Translations under genes and position numbers: made by a program
Part shown: in pieces, positions 1-10,685 of the stretch
How positions within the stretch are numbered: the stretch's first letter is position 1
How the letters are laid out: each line of letters opens with the position of its first letter
The notes under the pieces: generated by a model
Told to the model about the DNA's origin: nothing
The model's database searches: none
The model's input: the letters and a program-made list of their open reading frames with translations, nothing else
IMG/VR virus record: IMGVR_UViG_2690316109_000013
Span: 1-10,685 of that record
DNA: 10,685 nt
Origin: a virus
Lineage: Duplodnaviria; Heunggongvirae; Uroviricota; Caudoviricetes
Strand: one strand, 5' to 3'

Positions 1-62
1 GCACCTTCTTCCTTTATTGCCTGTTCGTCCGGAATGGCGGCGCAAATAAAGACTTTACTCAT
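1..62 (-). CDS. Hypothetical protein, N-terminal fragment; gene runs off the left edge of the window
   Basis: Minus-strand ATG at 62..60 preceded by GAGG about 10 nt upstream; reads MSKVFICAAIPDEQAIKEEGA and is still open at position 1. Not in the ORF track because it is truncated. Confidence 0.4.
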   Translation of the reverse strand, partial: MSKVFICAAIPDEQAIKEEG

Positions 63-154
63 TTTGTTTTACCTCATTACAGATTTAAGGGTGAACAAAT
101 CCCTGCCATTGCTGGCATATAAGAATGAAACCGGATATTTATTACGGAACTGTT

Positions 155-400
155 TTAAAGACCTGCCGGGATTTCGTTATTATCCTGGTGAATAACTTTA
201 TCGACCGGGTAACAGTTACCGGGAATTTTCTGTTCGGTTGCTGCAGTCACACACTCCTGCATTGTCCTGTGAACACTGACTGCAATATCAACTGGCTCTC
301 CGGAAACAAGAAAAACTGTCAGAACAAGTGCAAATGCTGTATTCATTGCCAGCATCCTTTTTGTATCGGACGTAAACGGGCCAGCATTGAAAGAATGCAT
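155..400 (-). CDS. Hypothetical small protein (81 aa) with one hydrophobic, membrane-like segment
   Basis: ORF track entry; ATG start at 400..398; hydrophobic stretch AFALVLTVFLVSG. The nearest GGGAG lies about 14 nt upstream, which is long for an RBS. Sits in an AT-rich stretch by eye. Product not recognised. Confidence 0.3.
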   Translation of the reverse strand: MHSFNAGPFTSDTKRMLAMNTAFALVLTVFLVSGEPVDIAVSVHRTMQECVTAATEQKIPGNCYPVDKVIHQDNNEIPAGL

Positions 401-1064
401 ATTTTATTTAATAGCTCCCGTTCGTGTTTTCTCTTGTTATGACACCAATTTCAAAACAACCTTCAGACGTATTAACGTTTGGTAATAACGTTTCCATTAT
501 CGCGTCCTCAACAATGAATTTTGTGATGCGGTGCCTGGTGCCTCCAGGTGACGTTAACCAGTTAACAATTAACGCCGGATACAGAGAATCCACCCATAAC
601 ACTGTTTTTGGTTTTAACTGTTCCGCGTGCGCTCAGCCGCATTCACCGCATCACAAAATTCACTTTAAAAACGGCGGCAGAGCAGTCACGGAGTAAAACT
701 GATACCGCCAAACGTCACCAGAAAATTGATAACAGAGGGCGTTGCAGCGGGGTTGTCGCTTAAGCGTATGGTCAACCTGACAACCCGGTGTCCTCAACGG
801 GGAAGGAATAACCCCGCCATACTTACCGCCGCGCCATTTCGCGGAGTGCCACAACCGGAAGCGCACGGTCGACGAAAATTTAACGACAGGCTATCTATGA
901 ACCAGCTACCTCGCCGTGCGCTTTCGCGTTATGGTCTGACTTTTCATGGAAATATCCTTTCAGTAAACTGTCAGTGCCGGATGCTCACCCGTGTCCGGCG
1001 CACGCACTCCACCTCACCCGTGGAGAACTCCTTAATTACCAACCTTAGCTTCGTTGGTTAGCTA

Positions 1065-1283
1065 TTAACGCGGGTATGTAATCATTCTGGCAATGCTTAA
1101 TGCCGCTGCTTTTTCCAGCCTGGTGATATCCTGCTCCAGAGCGGACAGATTTTCAGCCTGCTTAGCCCTGGCTTCATTGGCCCATTTCAGATCCTGCGCT
1201 GCATTAATTTTCTGGCGCATCCACTCATAAAGTTCATCATCGGTATAGTCTGGCGAGATGATGACGGGTTCTCGTTTCTGCAT
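1065..1283 (-). CDS. Hypothetical small protein (72 aa), charged and helical-looking; part of the leftward early operon
   Basis: ORF track entry; ATG at 1283..1281 with GAGGA 6 nt upstream on the minus strand; same orientation as the neighbouring small genes. Confidence 0.55.
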   Translation of the reverse strand: MQKREPVIISPDYTDDELYEWMRQKINAAQDLKWANEARAKQAENLSALEQDITRLEKAAALSIARMITYPR

Positions 1284-1312
1284 ACTGATTCCTCGCGGTG
1301 CTGCTTCGCTTA

Positions 1313-1441
1313 TCAGCCGTTAGATTTTGCCGAGCTGGAAAGCGCCTGTTTAAACTCACTGAAGCTGAGAGCTTCTTCGCCTTCGGCAAGGCCTTCGAAG
1401 TATTCTTCGTAAGCCTTTTCCATGATTGTGTCGAAATCCAT
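1313..1441 (-). CDS. Hypothetical small acidic protein (42 aa), hand-translated: MDFDTIMEKAYEEYFEGLAEGEEALSFSEFKQALSSSAKSNG
   Basis: Below the ORF-track size cut-off. ATG at 1441..1439 with AGGTGA upstream. The upstream gene's stop (1445..1443) and this start form TGAtATG on the minus strand, a typical translational-coupling arrangement. An alternative in-frame ATG at 1483 would give 56 aa. Confidence 0.4.
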   Translation of the reverse strand: MDFDTIMEKAYEEYFEGLAEGEEALSFSEFKQALSSSAKSNG

Positions 1442-1442
1442 A

Positions 1443-1679
1443 TCACTCACCTGAGTTTCTTTCCAGCCAGCGACGGGCACCATTTTCGGTTTTAAACGTT
1501 TTGCTTTTGGTATACGTCATCGCGGTGAACGTACCGTCCTGGTTGGGAAACACGCCGTACACCAGAGATTCGTTGTTGCCAAGATCGATAGTATCCATGT
1601 TGACCTCATTTCCCCTTAACGCCGGGGTAGCGGAACAAAAACCTGCTGCATAGTTATTAAAGTTGAACCCTGCCGTCAT
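1443..1679 (-). CDS. Hypothetical small protein (78 aa); first gene of the leftward operon; possibly YdaF/YdaG-like
   Basis: ORF track entry; ATG at 1679..1677 with GAGG about 9 nt upstream; lies just downstream of the pL-like promoter. An internal Met would give a 51-aa product. The Rac ydaF/ydaG assignment is unverified. Confidence 0.5.
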   Translation of the reverse strand: MTAGFNFNNYAAGFCSATPALRGNEVNMDTIDLGNNESLVYGVFPNQDGTFTAMTYTKSKTFKTENGARRWLERNSGE

Positions 1680-1779
1680 GTTCTTACGCCTCGGGCTGGC
1701 TACTTAACCCCTGACCACTGCCTGGTAACTCGAGGTATTGCCCTGTATTGTGTGGGACGGGATGGGTTGGTATGGGAAA

Positions 1780-1808
1780 ACTATAGGAAATGCCTAATTA
1801 CTTGTCAA
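1780..1808 (-). promoter_or_regulatory. pL-like sigma70 promoter driving leftward early transcription
   Basis: On the minus strand: TTGACA (plus 1808..1803), 17-bp spacer, TATAGT (plus 1785..1780). Operator-like GCCTAAT/ATTAGGC half-sites overlap the spacer and flank the -35. Confidence 0.5.
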
Positions 1809-1845
1809 TAGGCTATGCCTAATAATCTGGGCGCGACCTAATAGG
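1791..1845. promoter_or_regulatory. OL-like operator cluster of repeated TTAGGC/GCCTAA half-sites
   Basis: tgcctaatta (1791-1800), near-palindromic TAGGCTATGCCTAAT (1809-1823) and cctaatagg (1837-1845). The 15-mer 1802-1816 is the exact reverse complement of 2453-2467 on the other side of the repressor gene. Confidence 0.5.
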
Positions 1846-1880
1846 TGATGGTTTGTGGGAGAGGTAGTAGGAGTTAACTA

Positions 1881-1902
1881 ACGGGAACTAGGAATTTCCC
1901 GT
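1881..1902 (-). terminator. Hairpin just downstream of the repressor gene; possible weak terminator
   Basis: Inverted repeat acgggaa (1881-1887) and ttcccgt (1896-1902) with an 8-nt loop, immediately after the repressor stop on the minus strand. The following U-tract is poor. Confidence 0.3.
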
Positions 1903-1916
1903 CGGACCATATAAGT

Positions 1917-2393
1917 TTAAGTTCCTGTCTTGGTGATGTTCTGGCTTTTCCGTTTTGATTCTTGATTTTTCAGATAGTTAGCTACCTTCATTTCCATTGC
2001 GGCAATGTAGGCGCGAACGTCATGATCAACCCAACTAGGCTCCGTAGCATTTCCAGATAAGAGGAAAGCCACAATTGCTCTTTTTTCATCAGAGGCGGCT
2101 TGATAAAGGCTGTTTATGTCTAAAAGTTCACTTTTTGTATCTGAAGTGGATGGGGTTGGTATGGGGTATTCGTTAAGCCCCCAATGCTCTGGACCAACCA
2201 CATCAGAAAAGAAACGCCATAGTTCTGGAAGTTTGTCTTTACTTATCGAACCTTTCTTAATCCAGTCATGGATTGATGGTGGTTGGACTTTGAAATGACG
2301 TGCGATTTCCGCCTTTGATTTGACGGCTCCTGATGCAATTTTTTTGTTAATGGCCTGCTCTATCGCTCGGCCTAAGTCTTTACCACTAAGCAT
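1917..2393 (-). CDS. racR: Prophage repressor, RacR-like HTH protein (158 aa)
   Basis: ORF track entry; AGGAGA 10 nt upstream of the ATG at 2393; HTH-like segment KSKAEIARHFKVQPPSIHDWIKKGS; transcribed divergently from a Cro-like gene and flanked by operator repeats. Length and position match my recollection of RacR in the Rac prophage. Confidence 0.65.
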   Translation of the reverse strand: MLSGKDLGRAIEQAINKKIASGAVKSKAEIARHFKVQPPSIHDWIKKGSISKDKLPELWRFFSDVVGPEHWGLNEYPIPTPSTSDTKSELLDINSLYQAASDEKRAIVAFLLSGNATEPSWVDHDVRAYIAAMEMKVANYLKNQESKRKSQNITKTGT

Positions 2394-2421
2394 TGCTTAA
2401 TAGTCTCCTATGCGCATCGCG

Positions 2422-2488
2422 TTAGGCAATCCCTACTCTCGATGTGTTAGGTATAGCCTATTGACAATTGCATTAGGCTAAGCCTAAT
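2422..2488. promoter_or_regulatory. OR-like operator cluster
   Basis: ttaggc (2422-2427), ttaggtatagcctattgacaa (2447-2467) and the 7-3-7 palindrome ATTAGGCtaaGCCTAAT (2472-2488), which overlaps the PR-like spacer and -10. Confidence 0.5.
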
Positions 2489-2490
2489 AT
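2461..2490 (+). promoter_or_regulatory. PR-like sigma70 promoter driving the rightward early operon
   Basis: TTGACA (2461-2466), 18-bp spacer, TAATAT (2485-2490); followed by GGAG (2505-2508) and the ATG at 2518. Confidence 0.55.
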
Positions 2491-2517
2491 TGTTGCGTGT
2501 TTTTTGGAGTTCATTCG

Positions 2518-2841
2518 ATGAAAAAAGATAACTATTCATTCAAACGAGCTTGTGCTGTTGTCGGTGGGCAATCAGCAATGGCTAGGCTTTTAGGTGTATC
2601 TCCTCCAAGCGTAAATCAATGGATCAAAGGTGTACGTCAGTTGCCTGCTGAGAGATGTCCTGCGATTGAACGAGCAACAAAAGGTGGTGTCCTGTGTGAA
2701 GAACTTCGTCCTGATGTTGATTGGACATACTTACGACGCTCGTCATGTTATTCGCAGAATATGTCGATGAAGCAACCAAATGACGAAAACGATCATACCC
2801 GAAGCATCAAGAGGCAAATGATTCATGAAAATCAAACATGA
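2518..2841 (+). CDS. ydaS: Cro/CI-type HTH DNA-binding protein, YdaS-like (107 aa from the ATG at 2518)
   Basis: HTH motif QSAMARLLGVSPPSVNQWIKGVRQ; first gene after the PR-like promoter; GGAG 9 nt upstream. The track ORF begins at 2497, but 2518 has the better RBS. Confidence 0.7.
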   Translation: MKKDNYSFKRACAVVGGQSAMARLLGVSPPSVNQWIKGVRQLPAERCPAIERATKGGVLCEELRPDVDWTYLRRSSCYSQNMSMKQPNDENDHTRSIKRQMIHENQT

Positions 2842-3250
2842 GCACATCCGCATGGCGATGAATGCTTGGGCATACCCTGATGGTGAGAAAGTTCCTGCAG
2901 CTGAAATAGCCCGGACTTATTTCGAACTGGGGATGACGTTCCCTGAACTGTACGACGACAGCCATCCGGAAGCCCTGGCCCGTAATACACAGAAAATTTT
3001 CCGTTGGCTGGATAAAGACACCCCTGATGCTGTTGAAAAAATTCAGGCTCTGTTACCGGCGATCGAAAAGGCAATGCCGCCTCTGCTGGTGGCCCGTATG
3101 CGCAGTCACAGCTCTGAGTATTACCGGGAGATTGTCGAACGGCGGGATCGGCTGGTGAAGGATGTCGACGATTTTGTTGCGTCAGCGGTTGTTTTGTATG
3201 ACCAGATGAATCGCGGCGGCCCGGCAGGGAATGCTGTGGTGATGCACTAA
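2825..3250 (+). CDS. ydaT: YdaT-like protein (141 aa), reported as a phage CII-like regulator
   Basis: ORF track entry; start overlaps the YdaS-like stop by 17 nt; GAGG 10 nt upstream; sequence and length match my recollection of Rac YdaT. Confidence 0.7.
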   Translation: MKIKHEHIRMAMNAWAYPDGEKVPAAEIARTYFELGMTFPELYDDSHPEALARNTQKIFRWLDKDTPDAVEKIQALLPAIEKAMPPLLVARMRSHSSEYYREIVERRDRLVKDVDDFVASAVVLYDQMNRGGPAGNAVVMH

Positions 3251-3272
3251 AAGCACGGTGTTCGGGGGTTTT

Positions 3273-4235
3273 ATGAGCAGCAAGCTTCATGGTCTTGTCT
3301 GGGAAGGGTGCGCCTTCACCGGCATGATCTTATCCAGGGTGGCGGTTATGGCCCGTCTTGCAGACTACAGCAATGACGAGGGTGTGTCATGGCCTGCCAT
3401 TGAAACTATCCGGCGTCAGATCGGTGCAAGAAGTGAATCCACAGTGAAATCGGCTATTGCAGAACTGGCGAAAGAGGGCTGGCTGACGAAGGAAGAGCGT
3501 AAGGTCGGTGGGCGTAATGTAAGCAATATCTATCGGCTTAATGTGGAAAAACTCGAAGCAGCTGCGGCGGCGGCGCGTGAGTCATATAAACCGAAAAGAA
3601 AAATTAGCCCGGCAAAAAATGACCCGTTAACAGTTGACCCGTCAAATATTGACCCCTCAACGGTTGACCCGTCAAATTTTGATGGATCAACTGTTGATAA
3701 AAAACTGCCGATTAGGGGGGCGATGATTGACCCCGATCCGTCAGTATTAAAACCTGAACCGTCAGATAAAAGATCTTCTTGTCCGGACGCTTCGCAACCG
3801 GACCCGCAGACGGCTGAACAGGATTTTTTAACCCGACACCCTGACGCGGTTGTGTTCAGTGCGAAAAAACGCCAGTGGGGAAGTCAGGAAGATTTGGTGT
3901 GCGCACAGTGGATCTGGGGACGAATCGTGAGTCTTTACGAGCAGGCGGCCAGCTATGATGGCGAGATCACTAGACCGAAAGAACCCAACTGGACAGCATG
4001 GGCCAATGACGTTCGCACAATGCGGATGCTGGATGGCAGAACTCACAGACAAATTTGTGAAATGTTTGGGCGTCTCCAGCGGGATTCGTTCTGGGTAAAA
4101 AACATCATGAGTCCGGCAAAACTCCGGGAAAAATGGGATGAACTGGTTATCCGCCTGGGGCGTTCGCCTGCGCAGCGTTGCGTGAATCACATTTCTGAAC
4201 CGGACACTGAAATACCGCCGGGATTCAGGGGGTGA
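3273..4235 (+). CDS. ydaU: Replication initiation protein, lambda O-like / YdaU-like, with N-terminal HTH domain and a repetitive linker
   Basis: ORF track entry 3258-4235 (GTG start); I prefer the in-frame ATG at 3273 (MSSKLHGL). N-terminal winged-helix-like segment; linker reads DPSNIDPSTVDPSNFDGSTVD, encoded by iteron-like DNA repeats; followed by an overlapping DnaC-like gene. Confidence 0.7.
   Translation: MSSKLHGLVWEGCAFTGMILSRVAVMARLADYSNDEGVSWPAIETIRRQIGARSESTVKSAIAELAKEGWLTKEERKVGGRNVSNIYRLNVEKLEAAAAAARESYKPKRKISPAKNDPLTVDPSNIDPSTVDPSNFDGSTVDKKLPIRGAMIDPDPSVLKPEPSDKRSSCPDASQPDPQTAEQDFLTRHPDAVVFSAKKRQWGSQEDLVCAQWIWGRIVSLYEQAASYDGEITRPKEPNWTAWANDVRTMRMLDGRTHRQICEMFGRLQRDSFWVKNIMSPAKLREKWDELVIRLGRSPAQRCVNHISEPDTEIPPGFRG
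3621..3770. repeat. Iteron-like direct and inverted repeats inside the O-like gene; putative prophage replication origin
   Basis: Exact 14-bp copies of ttgacccgtcaaat at 3634-3647 and 3664-3677 (core palindrome TTGACccGTCAA), variant attgacccctcaa (3648-3660), palindrome ttgatggatcaa (3679-3690), further ccgtcag repeats (3725-3767), with A/T-rich DNA alongside. Confidence 0.45.
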
Positions 4236-4241
4236 CGTGTC

Positions 4242-4988
4242 ATGAAAAACATTGCGGCAGTTGGGGTTCTTGAACGTATTCGCAGACTTGCACCACAGGG
4301 GTCGGTTCCACCGTACCGGACGGTGGAGGAGTGGCGGGAATGGCAACTTGCTGAAGGACGAAAACGCAGCGAGGAGATTAACCGCCAGAATCGCCAGTTG
4401 CGGGTGGAAAAAATCCTGAATCGTTCGGGCATCCAGCCTCTGCACAGCAAATGCTCGTTTGCAAATTATCAGGTGCAGAACGACGGGCAAAAATACGCGC
4501 TGAGCCAGGCCAAATCCATAGCTGACGAACTGATGACCGGGTGCACGAATTTTGTGTTCAGCGGTAAAACCGGCACCGGGAAAAATCACCTTGCAGCGGC
4601 GATGGGCAACCGGCTGATGGTGAAGGGGCGCAGCGTGATTATCGTCACCGTGTCTGACGTCATGAGCGTGTTGCATGACAGCTACGACAACGGCAAATCC
4701 GGGGAAAAATTTTTACAGGAGCTTTGCGGGGTTGATTTGCTGGTCCTGGATGAAATAGGCGTTCAGCGGGAGACGAAAAACGAGCAGGTGGTATTGCACC
4801 AGATAATTGATCGCCGGACAGCATCACTGTGCAGTGTCGGGATGTTAACAAACCTGAATCATGCCGCAATGAGTACGCTTCTTGGTGAGAGGATTATGGA
4901 CCGCATGACCATGAACGGTGGTCGATGGGTGACGTTTAACTGGGATAGCTGGCGTCCAAATGTCAGCAATATGAGGGTTGTGAAGTAA
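4242..4988 (+). CDS. ydaV: DnaC-like AAA+ helicase loader, YdaV-like (248 aa)
   Basis: Walker A GKTGTGKNHLAAA (the GKN form that I recall from E. coli DnaC), Walker B LLVLDEIG, and a C-terminal LGERIMDRM...FNWDSWR segment resembling DnaC; AGGGGG RBS 10 nt upstream; positioned directly after the initiator gene. Confidence 0.8.
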   Translation: MKNIAAVGVLERIRRLAPQGSVPPYRTVEEWREWQLAEGRKRSEEINRQNRQLRVEKILNRSGIQPLHSKCSFANYQVQNDGQKYALSQAKSIADELMTGCTNFVFSGKTGTGKNHLAAAMGNRLMVKGRSVIIVTVSDVMSVLHDSYDNGKSGEKFLQELCGVDLLVLDEIGVQRETKNEQVVLHQIIDRRTASLCSVGMLTNLNHAAMSTLLGERIMDRMTMNGGRWVTFNWDSWRPNVSNMRVVK

Positions 4989-5009
4989 TTTTGTCCGGAG
5001 GAAATTTTA

Positions 5010-5780
5010 ATGGAAACCGTATCTGACGCACTGAAAGCACTGAAAAAAGCCTCTTCACATGTGGTGGCAGCTCGCCTTGGAATCACTCGTGAAGAGGCTG
5101 TCAACGAGCTGTGGGAACTCAAAAGAAATGGCGTCGTTGATAAAACTGGTCACACCTGGTTTCTGGCTGGCGAAGGTGAATCCCGGGTAACCGAGGAGCG
5201 GCCAGTAAAATCTGAAGCACAGGATATGCTGACCAGGGAGGTCGAACAAAAAGTTACCGCAGACATGATGATTGAGTTTATCGGTCAGGATGGGGCTAAA
5301 ACGTGTGAGGAACTGGCGGGTAAGTTCGGTGTCAGTACTCGCAAGGTTGCTTCCACGCTGGCGGTGGTAACCGCAACGGGGCGGCTGGCACGCGTTAATC
5401 AGAACGGTAAATTTCGTTACTGCATGCCGGGCGATAATTTACCAGCAGAGCCGAAAGCCGCGCTGGTAACGGAAAGTGATGGTAAGGCCTTTCCTCAGCC
5501 AGCAGGTGCTGCGTTACCAGTCCGGGAAGCCGCAACACAGGAAGAAATTAAAACAGAAACTGTGGCGGACATTGTGCAGCCGTTGCCATCGTTTACCGAA
5601 ACGCAAGCAGATGAGCTGATTTTTCCGTCCCTTCGCAGGGCAAACCTGGCGCTGCGCAGGGCGAAAAGTGATGTTCAGAAGTGGGAGCGAGTCTGCGCCG
5701 CGCTGCGGGAGCTGAACAAGCACCGGGATATTGTTCGACAGATTACTGATTCTTCCCGCCGTGTTGTATCGGAAAAGTGA
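5010..5780 (+). CDS. Hypothetical protein (256 aa) with two copies of a winged-helix-like module
   Basis: ORF track entry; GGAGG 9 nt upstream; two segments of about 55 aa (residues 1-57 and about 85-140) share the pattern G..T..ELA...G.S...V...L..L...G.V. Confidence 0.55.
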   Translation: METVSDALKALKKASSHVVAARLGITREEAVNELWELKRNGVVDKTGHTWFLAGEGESRVTEERPVKSEAQDMLTREVEQKVTADMMIEFIGQDGAKTCEELAGKFGVSTRKVASTLAVVTATGRLARVNQNGKFRYCMPGDNLPAEPKAALVTESDGKAFPQPAGAALPVREAATQEEIKTETVADIVQPLPSFTETQADELIFPSLRRANLALRRAKSDVQKWERVCAALRELNKHRDIVRQITDSSRRVVSEK

Positions 5781-5795
5781 TTGCCGAAGGCGCTT

Positions 5796-6221
5796 ATGGA
5801 AAAAGTATTTACACAAGAAGAGCGGGAAAAAATTAAAGGGCAGGTTGTTGAGCTAGTACGCCGGAGTGGGCGCGAGACGTTACGGCAACTGGAAGCCAAG
5901 ACAGGTGCGACAAGATATCTGATGAGCGTTCTTGCCAGAGAGCTGGTTGCCAGTGGTGATGTATATCACTCTGGCTATGGGTTGTTCCCGTCAGAACAGG
6001 CTCGTAAGGACTGGCAAAACGCCCGCAAAAAACTCTCGAGTGCAAAGGTGAAGAAACCTGTTGTGGTTGATCCGGGCCTTATCTGGACATTACCCGACGG
6101 AGAAATACGCCGCTACGACAGGCGTATGAACATAATCTGTCGCGAGTGCCGGAAGAGCGAAGCTATGCAGCGTGTACTGGCATTTTATCAAGGAAATGTT
6201 AGGTATTTTAGACGTTACTAG
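5796..6221 (+). CDS. Ren-like protein (141 aa from the ATG at 5796); third copy of the winged-helix-like module plus a Ren-like C-terminus
   Basis: ORF track entry starts at a TTG at 5781; the in-frame ATG at 5796 has GAAGG upstream. C-terminus CRECRKSEAMQRVLAFYQG resembles my recollection of the lambda Ren C-terminus (CRQSAAMKRVLAVYG). Occupies the position where ren sits in lambda. Confidence 0.5.
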   Translation: MEKVFTQEEREKIKGQVVELVRRSGRETLRQLEAKTGATRYLMSVLARELVASGDVYHSGYGLFPSEQARKDWQNARKKLSSAKVKKPVVVDPGLIWTLPDGEIRRYDRRMNIICRECRKSEAMQRVLAFYQGNVRYFRRY

Positions 6222-6374
6222 ATTAAAGAGCATTAGTTCAGATGTGAATTGACATTTTCATGGCGCAGGGTAGAGCCAGCGTGGTTGTCCGCTTTGCGTC
6301 AAAACCAGATATTACCAGATTTAGACATATATTCCCGATAGCCCTGCTCTGATGCTACACTCTGTGCTATTTTC

Positions 6375-7021
6375 ATGACCCCAATAAAAATATTTATGAC
6401 TATTGCTGATTTCAAACGGCCTAAATTGGAGCTTCCAAACGGGGCAAACAAACTACTACTGCACTCTTGCTGTGCTCCATGTTCCGGTGAAGTGATGGAG
6501 GCGCTTCAGGCCTCGGGAATCGACTACACCATCTTTTTCTACAACCCGAACATTCATCCTCAGAAAGAGTATTTAATTCGTAAGGATGAAAATATTCGCT
6601 TTGCTGAACAACACGGCGTGCCGTTTATCGATGCTGATTACGACACCGACAACTGGTTTGAACGTGCCAAAGGAATGGAATGGGAGCCTGAGAGGGGGAT
6701 CCGTTGTACCATGTGTTTTGACATGCGTTTTGAGCGGACAGCGTTGTACGCTGCTGAAAATGGTTTCAGTGTGATCAGATTAACGAGTGTGGGCGGCGAG
6801 CTGTTGCGCATTATCCGGGTATGGTGTACTGGGATTATAACTGGCGCAAGCAGGGCGGCTCGTCCCGTATGATTGAAATCAGCAAGCGCGAAAAATTCTA
6901 TCAGCAGGAATATTGTGGCTGTGTGTATTCTCTGCGCGATACCAATCTACACCGCAAATCTCAGGGACGCCCTCTTATCAAAATTGGCCAACTCCACTAC
7001 GGAAAAGAAGAGAAGGAGTGA
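6375..7021 (+). pseudogene. DUF208 / QueH-like (B12-independent epoxyqueuosine reductase family) gene split between two reading frames
   Basis: N-terminal part in the 6375-6872 ORF carries [11 protein letters not shown] and CTMC motifs; the C-terminal part, with [11 protein letters not shown] and EYCGCVYS, is in the 6821-7021 ORF in a different frame. The second frame is open from 6758, so the shift lies between about 6758 and 6872. No RBS is evident before either candidate ATG (6375 or 6396). Confidence 0.55.
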
Positions 7022-7091
7022 TTTTATGGATCACCTTTCTGATTGATTTCATATTGGCGAGGTGACGTGAGTTAAGTAGAATTGCTGCGGG

Positions 7092-7116
7092 TGCCTGAGG
7101 CTGTCTGCCTCAGGCA
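7092..7116 (+). other. Perfect 9-bp stem-loop in the leader upstream of the methyltransferase gene
   Basis: tgcctgagg (7092-7100), 7-nt loop, cctcaggca (7108-7116); no adjacent T-tract on either strand. A weak promoter candidate TTGGCG-17-TAGAAT (7054-7082) lies just upstream. Confidence 0.3.
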
Positions 7117-7199
7117 TGAACACCAAAAGGCAGATAGAGAAAGCCCCAGTTAACATTACGCGTCCTGTAAGACGCTCAACATTAATCTGAGGCATATGG

Positions 7200-8324
7200 A
7201 TGCGGATGAAAGAATTAAATAAATTCAGAGTGATAGACCTCTTTTGTGGGGCAGGTGGATTATCTTATGGTTTTCTTCATGGAGAGATGTCTGACTACTT
7301 TGAAAGTATCCTTGCTATTGATAATAATGCTGCAGCTATAAATACCTACAATGCCAATTTTGGTTTGCATGGAGTTCAGGCAAATATTGAGGAGTGGGCA
7401 TCCAGCAATACTGTTCCTGAGGCTGATGTGGTCATAGGTGGCCCCCCGTGTCAGGGATTCAGTTTATTGAATAAGAATCGTTATGGTGATCACCGAAGAG
7501 CATTGTGGGAGCCTTATATGGATGTCATTGAGCGTTCAAGGGCTTGTATGTTCGTCATGGAAAATGTCCCCGGATTGCTGATAAGCGATGAGTTTGCGGA
7601 CATTACGTTTAGAGCGAAATCCATGGGCTTTATTCTGCTTAATCCAATGGTGTTGAATACTGCTGACTATGGAGTACCTCAGACAAGAAAACGAACGATA
7701 GCAATCGGTATCAAACGAGAACTCTTCGATGTGCATAGTATTCCGGCGTTCCCGCCAGCACCAACGCATCGTTCCCCTGATAAGGATGTCGCTTTGCCTG
7801 AATGGGTCTGTACGCGTGATGCAATTGGTGACTTACCTGCTCCTGTTGGAACTGATATTCGTAATGAACTTCCTCCGCTGAACTTACATTTTGGGCGTAA
7901 TCCCACACCTGTTTCTCTGGAGCGATATAAAGCGGTTCCACCAGGAGGTAACCGTTTCGATTTACAGAAAAAAAGACCTGATATAACCCCGGCGTGCTGG
8001 CTAAAAAAGAAATCTGGAGGGACCGATTTGTTTGGACGTCTGTGGTGGGACAGACCTTCAGTAACGATTCGTACTGAGTTTTTCAAACCGGAGAAAGGGC
8101 GATATTTACATCCGGAAGAGGATCGGCCAATAACTCATCGTGAGGCAGCGAGATTAATGTCTTTTCCTGATAATTTCATTTTTACCGGTTCAAAAACTGA
8201 GATTGCAAAGCAGATCGGGAATGCTGTTCCACCGCTATTTGCGGCAAAAATCGCACAATATGTGTATGGAGTTTTGCAGGGACGGTATAAGAATAACATC
8301 AGTAAGAATAGTCAAGCAGCCTGA
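7200..8324 (+). CDS. DNA (cytosine-5)-methyltransferase, type II R-M modification subunit (374 aa)
   Basis: C5-MTase motifs: FCGAGGLSYGF (motif I, AdoMet binding), GGPPCQGFS (motif IV, catalytic Cys), VMENVPGL (ENV), QTRKR and C-terminal GNAVPP. TGAGG RBS 7 nt upstream of the ATG at 7200. Confidence 0.9.
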   Translation: MRMKELNKFRVIDLFCGAGGLSYGFLHGEMSDYFESILAIDNNAAAINTYNANFGLHGVQANIEEWASSNTVPEADVVIGGPPCQGFSLLNKNRYGDHRRALWEPYMDVIERSRACMFVMENVPGLLISDEFADITFRAKSMGFILLNPMVLNTADYGVPQTRKRTIAIGIKRELFDVHSIPAFPPAPTHRSPDKDVALPEWVCTRDAIGDLPAPVGTDIRNELPPLNLHFGRNPTPVSLERYKAVPPGGNRFDLQKKRPDITPACWLKKKSGGTDLFGRLWWDRPSVTIRTEFFKPEKGRYLHPEEDRPITHREAARLMSFPDNFIFTGSKTEIAKQIGNAVPPLFAAKIAQYVYGVLQGRYKNNISKNSQAA

Positions 8325-8337
8325 AGGAAATCCAGAA

Positions 8338-9216
8338 ATGAATGGAGATTTGGTTGACAGCATAGTTGGTTTTGCTGAAGCCAGAAAGGAGTTTCATGCC
8401 CAATTGTTACTGAATACGCTCACAATTAATACTGCCGGAGTTGTTAGTAACGCAGATAGCAGTAACAAAAACAGTAAAGCTATAGCAAGAGAAATTGCTC
8501 GCTTCTTGCAGGCTGAAACGATTGGTGAACGTGTTGCAGGGCAAACATCTGGTAATCAGTTTGAGAGTATCTGCGCAGAGTTTATAGAAAAAACCTTTTT
8601 TAAACTCAGCCACTTACGCCCTGGAAAATGGAATGTACATCAGGTTTCTGGTAGAAACAGATTAGAGATAGCTAAATATGAACAATATGCCCATCTTATA
8701 GCATTGGATAGTGCTGCAAAAAGTAATCCTCAGCTAGCTGCTGCACTGGGGAGTGATTATACGATTTCACCAGATATTATTGTTGAAAGAGAACCTGAAT
8801 GTGATCAAGTTATCAACAGTCCTGAATTACTGGTGGATGATTCTGTTACCCGCATGTCAGCTCTCAGGAGTTCGAATGGTGGGAAACCAATATTACACGC
8901 AAGTATTTCCTGCAAATGGACAATAAGAAGCGACCGGGCCCAGAATGCTCGTTCTGAGGCATTAAATCTTATTCGCAACCGTAAGGGAAATCTCCCTCAT
9001 GTAATGGTTGTTACTGCTGAGCCTACTCCAAGTCGTCTGGCGTCTATTGCTCTTGGTACTGGTGATATAGATTGCGTGTATCATTTTGCGCTTTATGAAC
9101 TTATATCAGCAGTTGAAATACTGGGGCTCAGCGATGCAGCTGACATGCTTTCCGTGATGGTTAATGGTAAAAGATTAAAGGATATTTCTGATCTTCCCTT
9201 GGATCTTGCAGTCTGA
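8338..9216 (+). CDS. Type II restriction endonuclease, NgoMIV/Cfr10I family (292 aa); predicted CCGG-core target, probably GCCGGC
   Basis: ATG at 8338 lies 13 nt after the MTase stop, with AAGGA 9 nt upstream. Catalytic-motif candidates SPDIIV (D146), SCK (K193) and ARSE (E207) have the D-to-K (47) and K-to-E (14) spacing that I recall for NgoMIV D140/K187/E201. The track ORF 8203-9216 extends upstream into the MTase gene in another frame. Confidence 0.8.
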   Translation: MNGDLVDSIVGFAEARKEFHAQLLLNTLTINTAGVVSNADSSNKNSKAIAREIARFLQAETIGERVAGQTSGNQFESICAEFIEKTFFKLSHLRPGKWNVHQVSGRNRLEIAKYEQYAHLIALDSAAKSNPQLAAALGSDYTISPDIIVEREPECDQVINSPELLVDDSVTRMSALRSSNGGKPILHASISCKWTIRSDRAQNARSEALNLIRNRKGNLPHVMVVTAEPTPSRLASIALGTGDIDCVYHFALYELISAVEILGLSDAADMLSVMVNGKRLKDISDLPLDLAV

Positions 9217-9288
9217 CATCTCTACGTAAATAGAGTCTGTCATATTTTAACTGTGATGGCACGTCATTGACTTCAGTACATTTTTACT

Positions 9289-9316
9289 AACCCGCTTCGC
9301 GGGTTTTGTTTTTTCC
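9289..9316 (+). terminator. Rho-independent terminator closing the R-M cassette
   Basis: aacccgc-ttc-gcgggtt GC-rich stem followed by the T-tract ttgtttttt (9304-9316); located about 70 bp after the endonuclease stop. Confidence 0.7.
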
Positions 9317-9386
9317 TGGCATTCTGGTTTACAATCCACACGCCAGCCTGAACAACTGGCACCTGCTGCGCCAGCAGAGACAACCG

Positions 9387-9659
9387 ATGGCGCACAATAC
9401 CAAACACCACAATTCTGATGCCGACCCTGCCAGCAGACACGGACGGCGCTCTCACGCATTCAAATATGACTGGTACCAGCATGACCAATGCACTGAAGAA
9501 CAGGCCGAGTGGCTGATTCAGAATTACCGCAGACGTGGATACCAGTTTCAGAAAGGCCTCAGTCCTGACTTCCGACACTGGATAATTTCCGTCAGGCTCC
9601 CTTATTCCGAACGCCCGCCGCGTCCGTCCCGCACATATCAGCAACGCATCTGGAGGTAA
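9387..9659 (+). CDS. Hypothetical small basic protein (91 aa from the ATG at 9387)
   Basis: The track ORF 9306-9659 begins at a TTG inside the terminator T-tract; the in-frame ATG at 9387 is more plausible but has a weak RBS. Product not recognised. Confidence 0.3.
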   Translation: MAHNTKHHNSDADPASRHGRRSHAFKYDWYQHDQCTEEQAEWLIQNYRRRGYQFQKGLSPDFRHWIISVRLPYSERPPRPSRTYQQRIWR

Positions 9660-9732
9660 CGTGCGGGTATTACTTCGACCTGTTCTGGTACCGGAACTCA
9701 GTCTGGTTATCGTTAAGCCAGGCCGTGAATCA

Positions 9733-10685
9733 ATGTCAGTATTCCATAACGGCAGAATATTGGTGGAACCGGAACCCAAAAACATGCGCAGTCTTCCGTC
9801 CGGCGTCGTTGCAGCCGTTAGCCAGCCGTTGGCTGAGGATAAAACATTACTACCATTTTTCAGCGATGAGCGGGTAATTCGTGCAGCAGGTGGTGCAGGT
9901 GCACTGTCTGACTGGTTATTACGTCACGTGAAATCCTGCCAGTGGCCACACGGCGATTATCATCACAGCGAAACAGTCATTCACCGTTACGGTACCGGCG
10001 CGATGGTGTTGTGCTGGCACTGTGACAACCAGCTGCGCGACCAGACATCAGAATCACTCGATCAACTTGCTCAGCAGAATCTGGTTGCCTGGATGATTGA
10101 CGTCATCCGTCACGCAATAAGCGGCACGCAGGAGAGGGAGTTATCGCTGGCCGAATTATCCTGGTGGGCGGCCTGCAATCAGGTGGTGGATGCACTACCT
10201 GAGGCAGTAGCGCGTCGTTCTCTGGGATTACCGGCGGAAAAAATCCGCTCCGTATACCGTGAAAGCGACATCATACCGGGAGAACAGACCGCCACCAGCA
10301 TACTGAAGCAGCGCACAAAAAATATTGCGCTACCGCCTCACACCCACCAGCAACAGAACCCACCACAGGAAAAGACGGTGGTCAGCATTGCCGTTGATCC
10401 GGAGTCTCCGGAATCCTTCATGAAACGACCTAAACGTCGCCGCTGGGTAAATGAGAAATACACACGCTGGGTAAAGACACAGCCGTGTGCGTGTTGTGGT
10501 AAGCCAGCGGACGATCCTCATCATCTGATTGGTCATGGTCAGGGTGGAATGGGAACAAAATCCCACGATATTTTCACGCTACCGCTGTGTCGGGAGCATC
10601 ACAACGAGCTTCATGCGGATCCGCTGGCGTTCGAAGAAAAGCATGGTTCCCAGGTTGATTTAATTTTTCGTTTTCTTGATCACGC
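9733..10685 (+). CDS. DUF968 / YdfU-like nin-region protein with C-terminal HNH-like Cys/His motif; 3' end lies beyond the window
   Basis: Hand-translated open frame, absent from the ORF track because no stop is reached. ATG at 9733 (MSVFHNGRIL...), GTG alternative at 9661. C-terminal CACCGKPADDPHHLIGHGQGGMGTKSHDIFTLPLCREHHNELH resembles a zinc-binding HNH nuclease motif. Confidence 0.65.
   Translation, partial: MSVFHNGRILVEPEPKNMRSLPSGVVAAVSQPLAEDKTLLPFFSDERVIRAAGGAGALSDWLLRHVKSCQWPHGDYHHSETVIHRYGTGAMVLCWHCDNQLRDQTSESLDQLAQQNLVAWMIDVIRHAISGTQERELSLAELSWWAACNQVVDALPEAVARRSLGLPAEKIRSVYRESDIIPGEQTATSILKQRTKNIALPPHTHQQQNPPQEKTVVSIAVDPESPESFMKRPKRRRWVNEKYTRWVKTQPCACCGKPADDPHHLIGHGQGGMGTKSHDIFTLPLCREHHNELHADPLAFEEKHGSQVDLIFRFLDH

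Follow-up and report, generated by a model that had tools for sequence, protein, structure and literature searches.

A restriction–modification cassette in the place of the hokW–sokW coding region in a Rac-like Escherichia coli prophage

Introduction

We analyzed positions 1 to 10,685 (hereafter the window, 10,685 nucleotides in length) of the virus record IMGVR_UViG_2690316109_000013 (Caudoviricetes); the window stems from a Rac-like lambdoid prophage of Escherichia coli and represents its early region. A first-pass annotation made from the sequence alone had noted a type II restriction–modification (R-M) pair at 7200–9316 and had described it as a moron, that is, a cargo unit lying between phage genes and ending in its own terminator. 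This locus raises the question of where the two genes came to lie and whose expression signals they use. Our analysis indicates that a cassette of a methyltransferase gene (M) and an endonuclease gene (R) probably replaced, in one event, the coding part of a hokW–sokW toxin–antitoxin locus, and that it would be expressed from the signals of that locus as an operon with M in first place and a putative role in defence and addiction.

Results and Discussion

Identity of the two genes

The cassette contains the following two genes:

7206 (7200)–8324, plus strand: C5-cytosine DNA methyltransferase M (PF00145; RefSeq CDS WP_001427299.1)
8338–9216, plus strand: NgoMIV-family type II restriction endonuclease R (PF09015; 292 amino acids)

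M covers the whole PF00145 profile (E 4e-54), scores 154.5 bits against TIGR00675 (cut-off 100.65) and contains each of the motifs by which we judged C5 methyltransferases (I FxGxG, IV PCQ, VI ENV, VIII QxRxR and X GNAV): FCGAGG at residue 13, PPCQGFS at 80, ENV at 119, QTRKR at 159 and GNAV at 338. The C5-cytosine methyltransferase proposed at 7200–8324 was thereby borne out. Its open reading frame (ORF) encodes 374 amino acids; in the RefSeq entry, as in homologues from other genera, the start codon is the second ATG (7206), giving 372 amino acids.

The assignment of R to the NgoMIV family held equally well in the protein-family comparison: R matches PF09015 (NgoMIV_restric) with E 6e-127 over profile positions 1–275 of 275, and NgoMIV itself (PDB 1fiu_A) over its full length with E 1e-118 and about 70% identity, residues 12–292 aligning with 5–286 and interrupted by a single one-residue gap near the N-terminus. 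The PADLOC model REase_II is matched with E 8e-126; NCBIfam holds no model matching R. NgoMIV-type enzymes share the catalytic motif PD-X46–53-K-X13-E, read CCGG by an RXDR motif and, in NgoMIV, contact the outer C through Gln63 (PMC3413111). In R, the catalytic residues are P145-D146, K193 (46 residues on) and E207 (13 further on), which align with D140, K187 and E201 of NgoMIV; the recognition motif is an intact RSDR at 197–200, and the equivalent of Gln63 is kept in the context GQTSGN. The equivalents of Asp34 and Arg227 of NgoMIV, which we take to be contacts to the outer G:C pair, are likewise kept as NADSS and PTPSR. R is predicted to cut G/CCGGC.

The stop codon of M (8322–8324) and the start codon of R (8338) are separated by a gap of 13 nucleotides, the tight junction noted at the outset. 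Judged by their sequences, M and R are a complete and intact type II pair. That the two are cognate is argued for by the occurrence of the same M lineage next to an NgoMIV-type R in a Klebsiella michiganensis prophage (M 80%, R 80% identical) and on a Cronobacter dublinensis chromosome (M 78%, R 84%), M and R having diverged to a similar extent across the three genera, and is indirectly backed by the purifying selection on both genes in 60 viable genomes (see below). The pair as a whole would then be specific for GCCGGC. The window contains no GCCGGC site where 2.6 would be expected, a difference without significance; because so few sites are expected, their absence is uninformative either way and the idea of site avoidance was dropped.

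The composition of the cassette is foreign, and the earlier by-eye impression of an AT-richer block was confirmed by all three comparisons that we computed. GC content is 0.427 in the cassette as opposed to 0.512 (2497–6221) and 0.531 (9288–10685) in the backbone; GC content at third codon positions (GC3) is 0.365 in M and 0.300 in R, while most backbone genes lie at about 0.50–0.62; and the codon-usage divergence of the cassette amounts to 0.069, the backbone reaching a maximum of 0.054 over 500 resamplings.

The cassette lies between the remnants of a hokW–sokW locus

Alignment of the window with phages Evi and HannyBb, neither of which has the R-M genes, assigns the surroundings of the pair to a type I toxin–antitoxin locus:

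7054–7082, plus strand: putative hok promoter, TTGGCG-17 nt-TAGAAT (9 of 12 positions in a consensus scan)
7089–7193, plus strand: remnant of the hok mRNA 5' leader (Rfam RF01794 and alignment to Evi and HannyBb), with a long 5' hairpin at 7089–7145, a second hairpin at 7146–7188 and the mok Shine–Dalgarno sequence GAGG at 7189–7192
7136–7193, minus strand: 3' portion of the gene for the antisense RNA SokW, left without its promoter; the -10 element, the start site and the 5' tail belonged to the DNA that was replaced
7194–9287, plus strand: imported R-M cassette of 2094 bp, delimited by alignment with Evi, HannyBb and strain A34
9217–9287, plus strand: 3' untranslated stretch of the cassette, specific to E. 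coli
9288–9316, plus strand: intrinsic terminator of the hok locus, a seven-pair, G+C-rich hairpin AACCCGC-TTC-GCGGGTT with a T-run (9289–9316)

On the left side, the window is nearly identical to Evi and HannyBb from about 7020 to 7193; from there on, the phages continue into mok and hok, whereas the window continues into M, with AATCTGAGGC being followed directly by ATATGG at the junction. The promoter-like site at 7054–7082 is also found upstream of hok in Evi. The Rfam match to RF01794 at 7089–7269 reaches 61 bits (gathering score 59) and is good only over the first ~88 of 157 model positions, to about 7193, whereas the intact hok loci of Evi and HannyBb score 113–115 bits. Moreover, the leader closely resembles primer YO-351, used for the deletion of hokW in prophage Sp5 (PMC8621323), in a by-eye comparison that leaves a few differences.

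Everything between the two junctions that would make up a functional killing module is missing. The window, which diverges from Evi and HannyBb from 7194 on, has neither their Hok frame nor the fbi element (CCTCAACGCACCC in Evi). According to the mutagenesis primers YO-421/422, the -10 element of sokW is the complement of TAGGTTA, located 21 nucleotides past GAGGC in the hok sense (PMC8621323); this TAGGTTA stretch has no counterpart in the alignment with the window. The mok and hok frames, the sokW promoter and fbi were all lost because all of them lie in the replaced part. A minus-strand promoter-like site near 7200–7260 that could stand in for the sok promoter was not found in the consensus scan. 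A 10/12 promoter match inside M (7300–7328) was discarded, since the number of such sites is at chance level (5 found, 6.4 expected).

On the right side, hok and fbi are followed by TAACCCGCTTCGGCGGGTTTTGTTTTTTCCTGGCATTCTGG in Evi and HannyBb, and the window rejoins both phages exactly at TAACCCGC (9288), the right junction reading TTTTTAC followed by TAACCCGC. The homology to the Klebsiella and Cronobacter cassettes ends at 9209–9221, and that to the hok loci restarts at 9288. The same terminator follows hok and fbi in Evi and is also present in A34. Its loop (hairpin at 9289–9305) is TTC in the window and in the RefSeq hit H1 and TTCG in Evi and A34, which corresponds to a deletion of one nucleotide and may mark the main R-M lineage. 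An Rfam match to RyhB at 9255–9312 (24 bits, gathering score 55) overlaps the terminator hairpin and was rejected as a chance hit.

The comparison with prophages lacking the insert, which the first-pass annotation had proposed, thus sets the boundaries of the insertion at 7194 and 9287, and the direction of the replacement is from hokW–sokW to R-M. The placement between a Ren-like (DUF977) and a DUF968 gene was right as far as the region is concerned; direct adjacency was not, as a disrupted queH gene (6375–7021) and the hok promoter and leader (7054–7193) intervene on the left and an ORF of 90 amino acids (9387–9659) intervenes on the right.

The fusion may also affect the start of M. An in-frame ATG at 7200 lies 7 nucleotides past the mok Shine–Dalgarno sequence, almost exactly at the position of the mok ATG in intact loci, and the start supported by homology, 7206, lies 13 nucleotides from the Shine–Dalgarno sequence. 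The ATG at 7200 may be the one actually used.

Frequency and history of the replacement

For a census of 5426 complete E. coli genomes, we reconstructed the hok-occupied site by joining the flanks of the window to the hok segment of Evi and counted matches of at least 80% of its length. Far from the same genes standing at this position in all related prophages, the hok-occupied allele (annotated as QueH, HokD-type toxin and hypothetical protein) is found in 2536 genomes and the R-M allele in 60, always as one chromosomal copy. The carriers include O157:H7, O111, O103 and O39 strains; 59 of the 60 copies are at least 99% identical, and R is full length in all of the 60 genomes listed.

Strain A34 has a cassette of 97.4% identity that sits in a different prophage backbone, with the same two junctions; the sequence differs from the window beyond the -10 element (spacer and upstream DNA) and beyond the terminator, while the promoter hexamers are kept as TTGGCA-17-TAGAAT. 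Because both junctions are shared in spite of the other backbone, the A34 copy points to one old replacement event, and also to a later movement of the entire unit of hok promoter, leader, M, R and terminator between prophage backbones. Relative to the A34 copy, the ratio of nonsynonymous to synonymous substitution rates (dN/dS) amounts to 0.13 in M and 0.10 in R; such low values show purifying selection and indicate that both genes were kept functional in the hok slot. In A34 (L084:1373–3008), queH is replaced upstream by a divergent pair annotated as 'sce7726 family protein' and 'beta family protein'.

A similar picture emerges from 120 IMG/VR loci that contain the 3' end of the leader: hok follows directly in about 105, and in five the R-M junction is identical to that of the window, the terminator lying 2093 bp past the left junction in each of them. 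The others have disruptions associated with insertion sequences (L113, L140, L167), an insertion behind an intact hok (L145), or are too short or diverged to classify. We also considered whether the hok leader and terminator form a general frame for cargo, and rejected this, as no other gene replacing hok at the leader junction was present among the 120 loci. In L113, L140 and L167, the region of the hok start codon is broken by an element coding for a transposase-like protein of 437–446 amino acids, behind which lie more ORFs, two of them RelB-like and RelE-like by eye. In L145, hok and fbi are intact, and fbi is separated from the hok terminator by an insert of about 1.5 kb that contains ORFs of 295, 79 and 130 amino acids; the position of this insert nearly coincides with the right junction of the cassette, which suggests that insertions recur immediately 5' of the terminator.

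Origin of the pair

NgoMIV-type endonucleases with 60–78% identity to R occur across many phyla. In species-representative genomes, the relatives of R are at most 78% identical and all are accompanied by a different methylase: a C5 methylase match is present in 74 of 80 related NgoMIV-type loci, in nearly all of them directly upstream of R, and these enzymes have about 313 amino acids and are mostly 22–30% identical to M, often over the N-terminal half only, with rare partial matches of 32–42%. M is accordingly not an orthologue of the M.NgoMIV-type partner but groups with Enterobacterales enzymes of ~371 amino acids. As the neighbouring methylases belong to another lineage than M, the NgoMIV-type nuclease has switched its methylase partner at least once.

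The K. michiganensis and C. dublinensis cassettes share about 72% DNA identity with the window, restricted to 7218–9221, and at this low identity they are to be regarded as relatives and not as the direct donor. The K. michiganensis cassette (L085–L087:4001–6004) is located just upstream of a DUF968 region, between DinI-like and LexA-like DNA-binding genes, which looks like an independent use of the same nin-region neighbourhood. A P2-like prophage of Yersinia kristensenii (L089:4001–6092) encodes a methylase of the M type (77%) that is followed by an overlapping HNH-domain protein of 330 amino acids and preceded by a PvuRts1I-like/SRA protein and a HicB protein.

Prophage context

The gene order around the cassette is that of an early region:

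672–723, minus strand: DicF RNA, a full-length antisense RNA (Rfam 72.5 bits, gathering score 48)
1917–2393, minus strand: racR
further on: ydaS-like gene, ydaT-like gene, O-like replication gene, DnaC-like gene, DUF1627 gene, DUF977 gene
then: queH, M, R, ORF of 90 amino acids (9387–9659), DUF968 gene

A sub-threshold STnc100-like match at 465–674 (minus strand; 39.8 bits, cut-off 47) adjoins DicF, and the two together fit the dicB/ydfC-type region of the matching RefSeq genome. The ydaS-like (cro-like) gene (2497–2841) has a GC content of 0.426 and a GC3 of 0.313; as it is equally AT-rich as the cassette, a low GC content by itself is no sign of foreign cargo in this prophage. In the queH gene (6375–7021; epoxyqueuosine reductase QueH, PF02677), a 40-bp deletion near 6775/6776 shifts the frame and breaks the gene in two. 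The best matches among the complete E. coli genomes, among them the 57 that have the whole R-M context, possess an intact gene (222 amino acids), and none of the matches listed there has the deletion; a match of intact length to the queH stretch was obtained in 983 of the 5426 genomes.

A proposed course of events

We propose that a single illegitimate recombination brought the 2.1-kb M-R cassette into a hokW–sokW type I locus in the nin region. The insertion would have removed the mok and hok frames, the sokW promoter and fbi, and it would have spared the hok promoter, the leader as far as the ribosome-binding site of mok, and the terminator. In the lysogen, M and R would be transcribed as one operon with M in first place, starting near 7089 from the constitutive hok promoter and ending at the hok terminator: Because the early operon is repressed in this state, the retained promoter at 7054–7082 is the likely source of M-R transcripts. 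After induction, both genes could additionally be expressed by read-through from the early operon. M would protect the GCCGGC sites (or overlapping, CCGG-containing sites) of host and prophage, and R would cut unmethylated incoming DNA at G/CCGGC. Upon loss of the prophage, residual endonuclease would act on a chromosome that is no longer methylated, as in other type II systems, and the prophage could be stabilized in the way in which hok/sok stabilizes plasmids. One post-segregational killing module would thus have been exchanged for another. Both the defence and the addiction role are plausible.

Weighing the alternatives

That the block is a self-contained moron, inserted between phage genes with a promoter and a terminator of its own, would agree with its foreign composition, its tight operon and the strong terminator at its end. 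Part of this description stands: the genes are foreign and absent from relatives, and they lie between a promoter-like site and a terminator. The terminator, however, together with the sequence that follows it, is identical to that after hok in Evi and HannyBb, which have no R-M genes, and therefore belongs to the resident hok locus; the only promoter-like site upstream and the leader are also those of hok, and the Klebsiella and Cronobacter homology covers nothing but the coding region, 7218–9221. Because promoter-like site, leader and terminator are those of hok, the moron-like layout is inherited from the replaced locus, and we regard a self-contained unit as very improbable. Somewhat less remote, but still unlikely, is that R is inactive or silent and the methylase alone is useful, protecting the DNA of the phage when it enters new hosts with restriction of the GCCGGC or CCGG type. 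Solitary methylases encoded by phages are common, and the Y. kristensenii prophage combines the same methylase type with an HNH nuclease in place of an NgoMIV-type one. On the other hand, R is full length in all of the 60 genomes listed, it keeps all catalytic and recognition motifs, its dN/dS is as low as that of M, and R and M co-occur in three genera.

The fusion to the hok leader also suggests that the cassette might be under RNA control of the hok/sok type, in that SokW from other hokW loci pairs with the leader and the ribosome-binding site and either represses translation of M or triggers cleavage of the M-R mRNA by RNase III. The leader at 7140–7193 differs from that of Evi at 2 of ~54 positions and ends in the Shine–Dalgarno sequence; the carrier genomes have 2–7 places matching parts of 6200–9400 with R-M in single copy, which fits the presence of further hok-type loci; and SokW acts in trans (PMC8621323). 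What speaks against such control is the loss of the complement of the first ~15 nucleotides of SokW. In the R1 system, it is the 5' tail of Sok that starts pairing. Besides, the host would be endangered if M were repressed ahead of R. Since the leader no longer extends to the complement of the SokW 5' tail, we consider this control improbable, and the same low probability applies to the idea that, with the start of M at the former mok start behind the hok leader, R-M expression is coupled to sibling prophages via SokW. If true, it would amount to cross-talk linking an R-M system to a type I antitoxin RNA.

The replacement of the hokW–sokW coding part by an active M-R operon remains the probable explanation, though several points count against it. 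The hok promoter matches the consensus at only 9 of 12 positions. Folding of the chimeric leader predicts a minimum-free-energy structure in which the Shine–Dalgarno sequence and both candidate starts are paired, at a low ensemble frequency, so translation of M could be weak or regulated. The specificity of M can be deduced only from its co-inheritance with R, because M is only 22–30% identical to the usual partners of NgoMIV-type enzymes, as seen in about 70 other taxa. Finally, our search for a donor yielded no sequence above about 84% amino acid identity, and plasmids reached at most 67% nucleotide identity.

Comparison with known systems

The closest characterized relative of R is the NgoMIV system of Neisseria gonorrhoeae, a tetrameric type IIF enzyme that cuts G/CCGGC (PDB 1FIU/4ABT). 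The window resembles it in R, with its identity of about 70%, the PD...K...E and RSDR motifs and the retained Gln63 equivalent, and in the M-then-R order, which is also that of about 70 related loci. It differs in that M belongs to another lineage (372 amino acids as opposed to roughly 313; 22–30% identity) and that the pair is borne by a prophage and resides inside a toxin–antitoxin locus. With hokW–sokW of the Stx2 prophage Sp5 (PMC8621323) and the hok/sok family RF01794, the window shares the promoter-like site, the leader, the mok Shine–Dalgarno sequence, the terminator and the place in lambdoid prophages upstream of a DUF968 gene; in contrast to them, it has no Hok or Mok frame, no sokW promoter and no fbi, and it has the M-R operon instead. 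The Klebsiella and Cronobacter cassettes are similar in M lineage (78–80%), R (80–84%), tight junction (9–13 nucleotides) and low GC content, but they have neither hok leader nor hok terminator.

Prophage-borne R-M systems as such are well known. A PstI-like system is reportedly encoded on the Stx2 phage of O104:H4, and post-segregational killing by type II R-M systems is said to have been worked out by Kobayashi. Like other prophage-borne systems, the pair in the window adds defence genes to a temperate phage and might stabilize it via residual endonuclease; unlike them, it substitutes for another killing module and borrows the expression signals of the latter. Regulation by antisense RNA has been described for EcoRI (PMC3141266). 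In our literature search, we found no description of an R-M operon that substitutes for hok within hokW–sokW and reuses its signals, nor of the pairing of an NgoMIV-type nuclease with this non-canonical methylase lineage. The setting is apparently undescribed, whereas both enzymes are ordinary and already named in RefSeq.

Conclusion

The locus provides a clean, datable case in which one selfish killing or defence module was replaced by another at the same address, with promoter, leader and terminator being reused, and it illustrates how accessory slots of prophages are recycled. In addition, the NgoMIV-type nuclease of the cassette has a methylase of an unusual lineage as its partner. If the system is active, a subset of pathogenic E. 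coli would carry 5-methylcytosine at GCCGGC, a modification that standard PacBio methylome surveys mostly fail to detect, with possible consequences for phage susceptibility, transformation efficiency and gene flow among the carrier strains.

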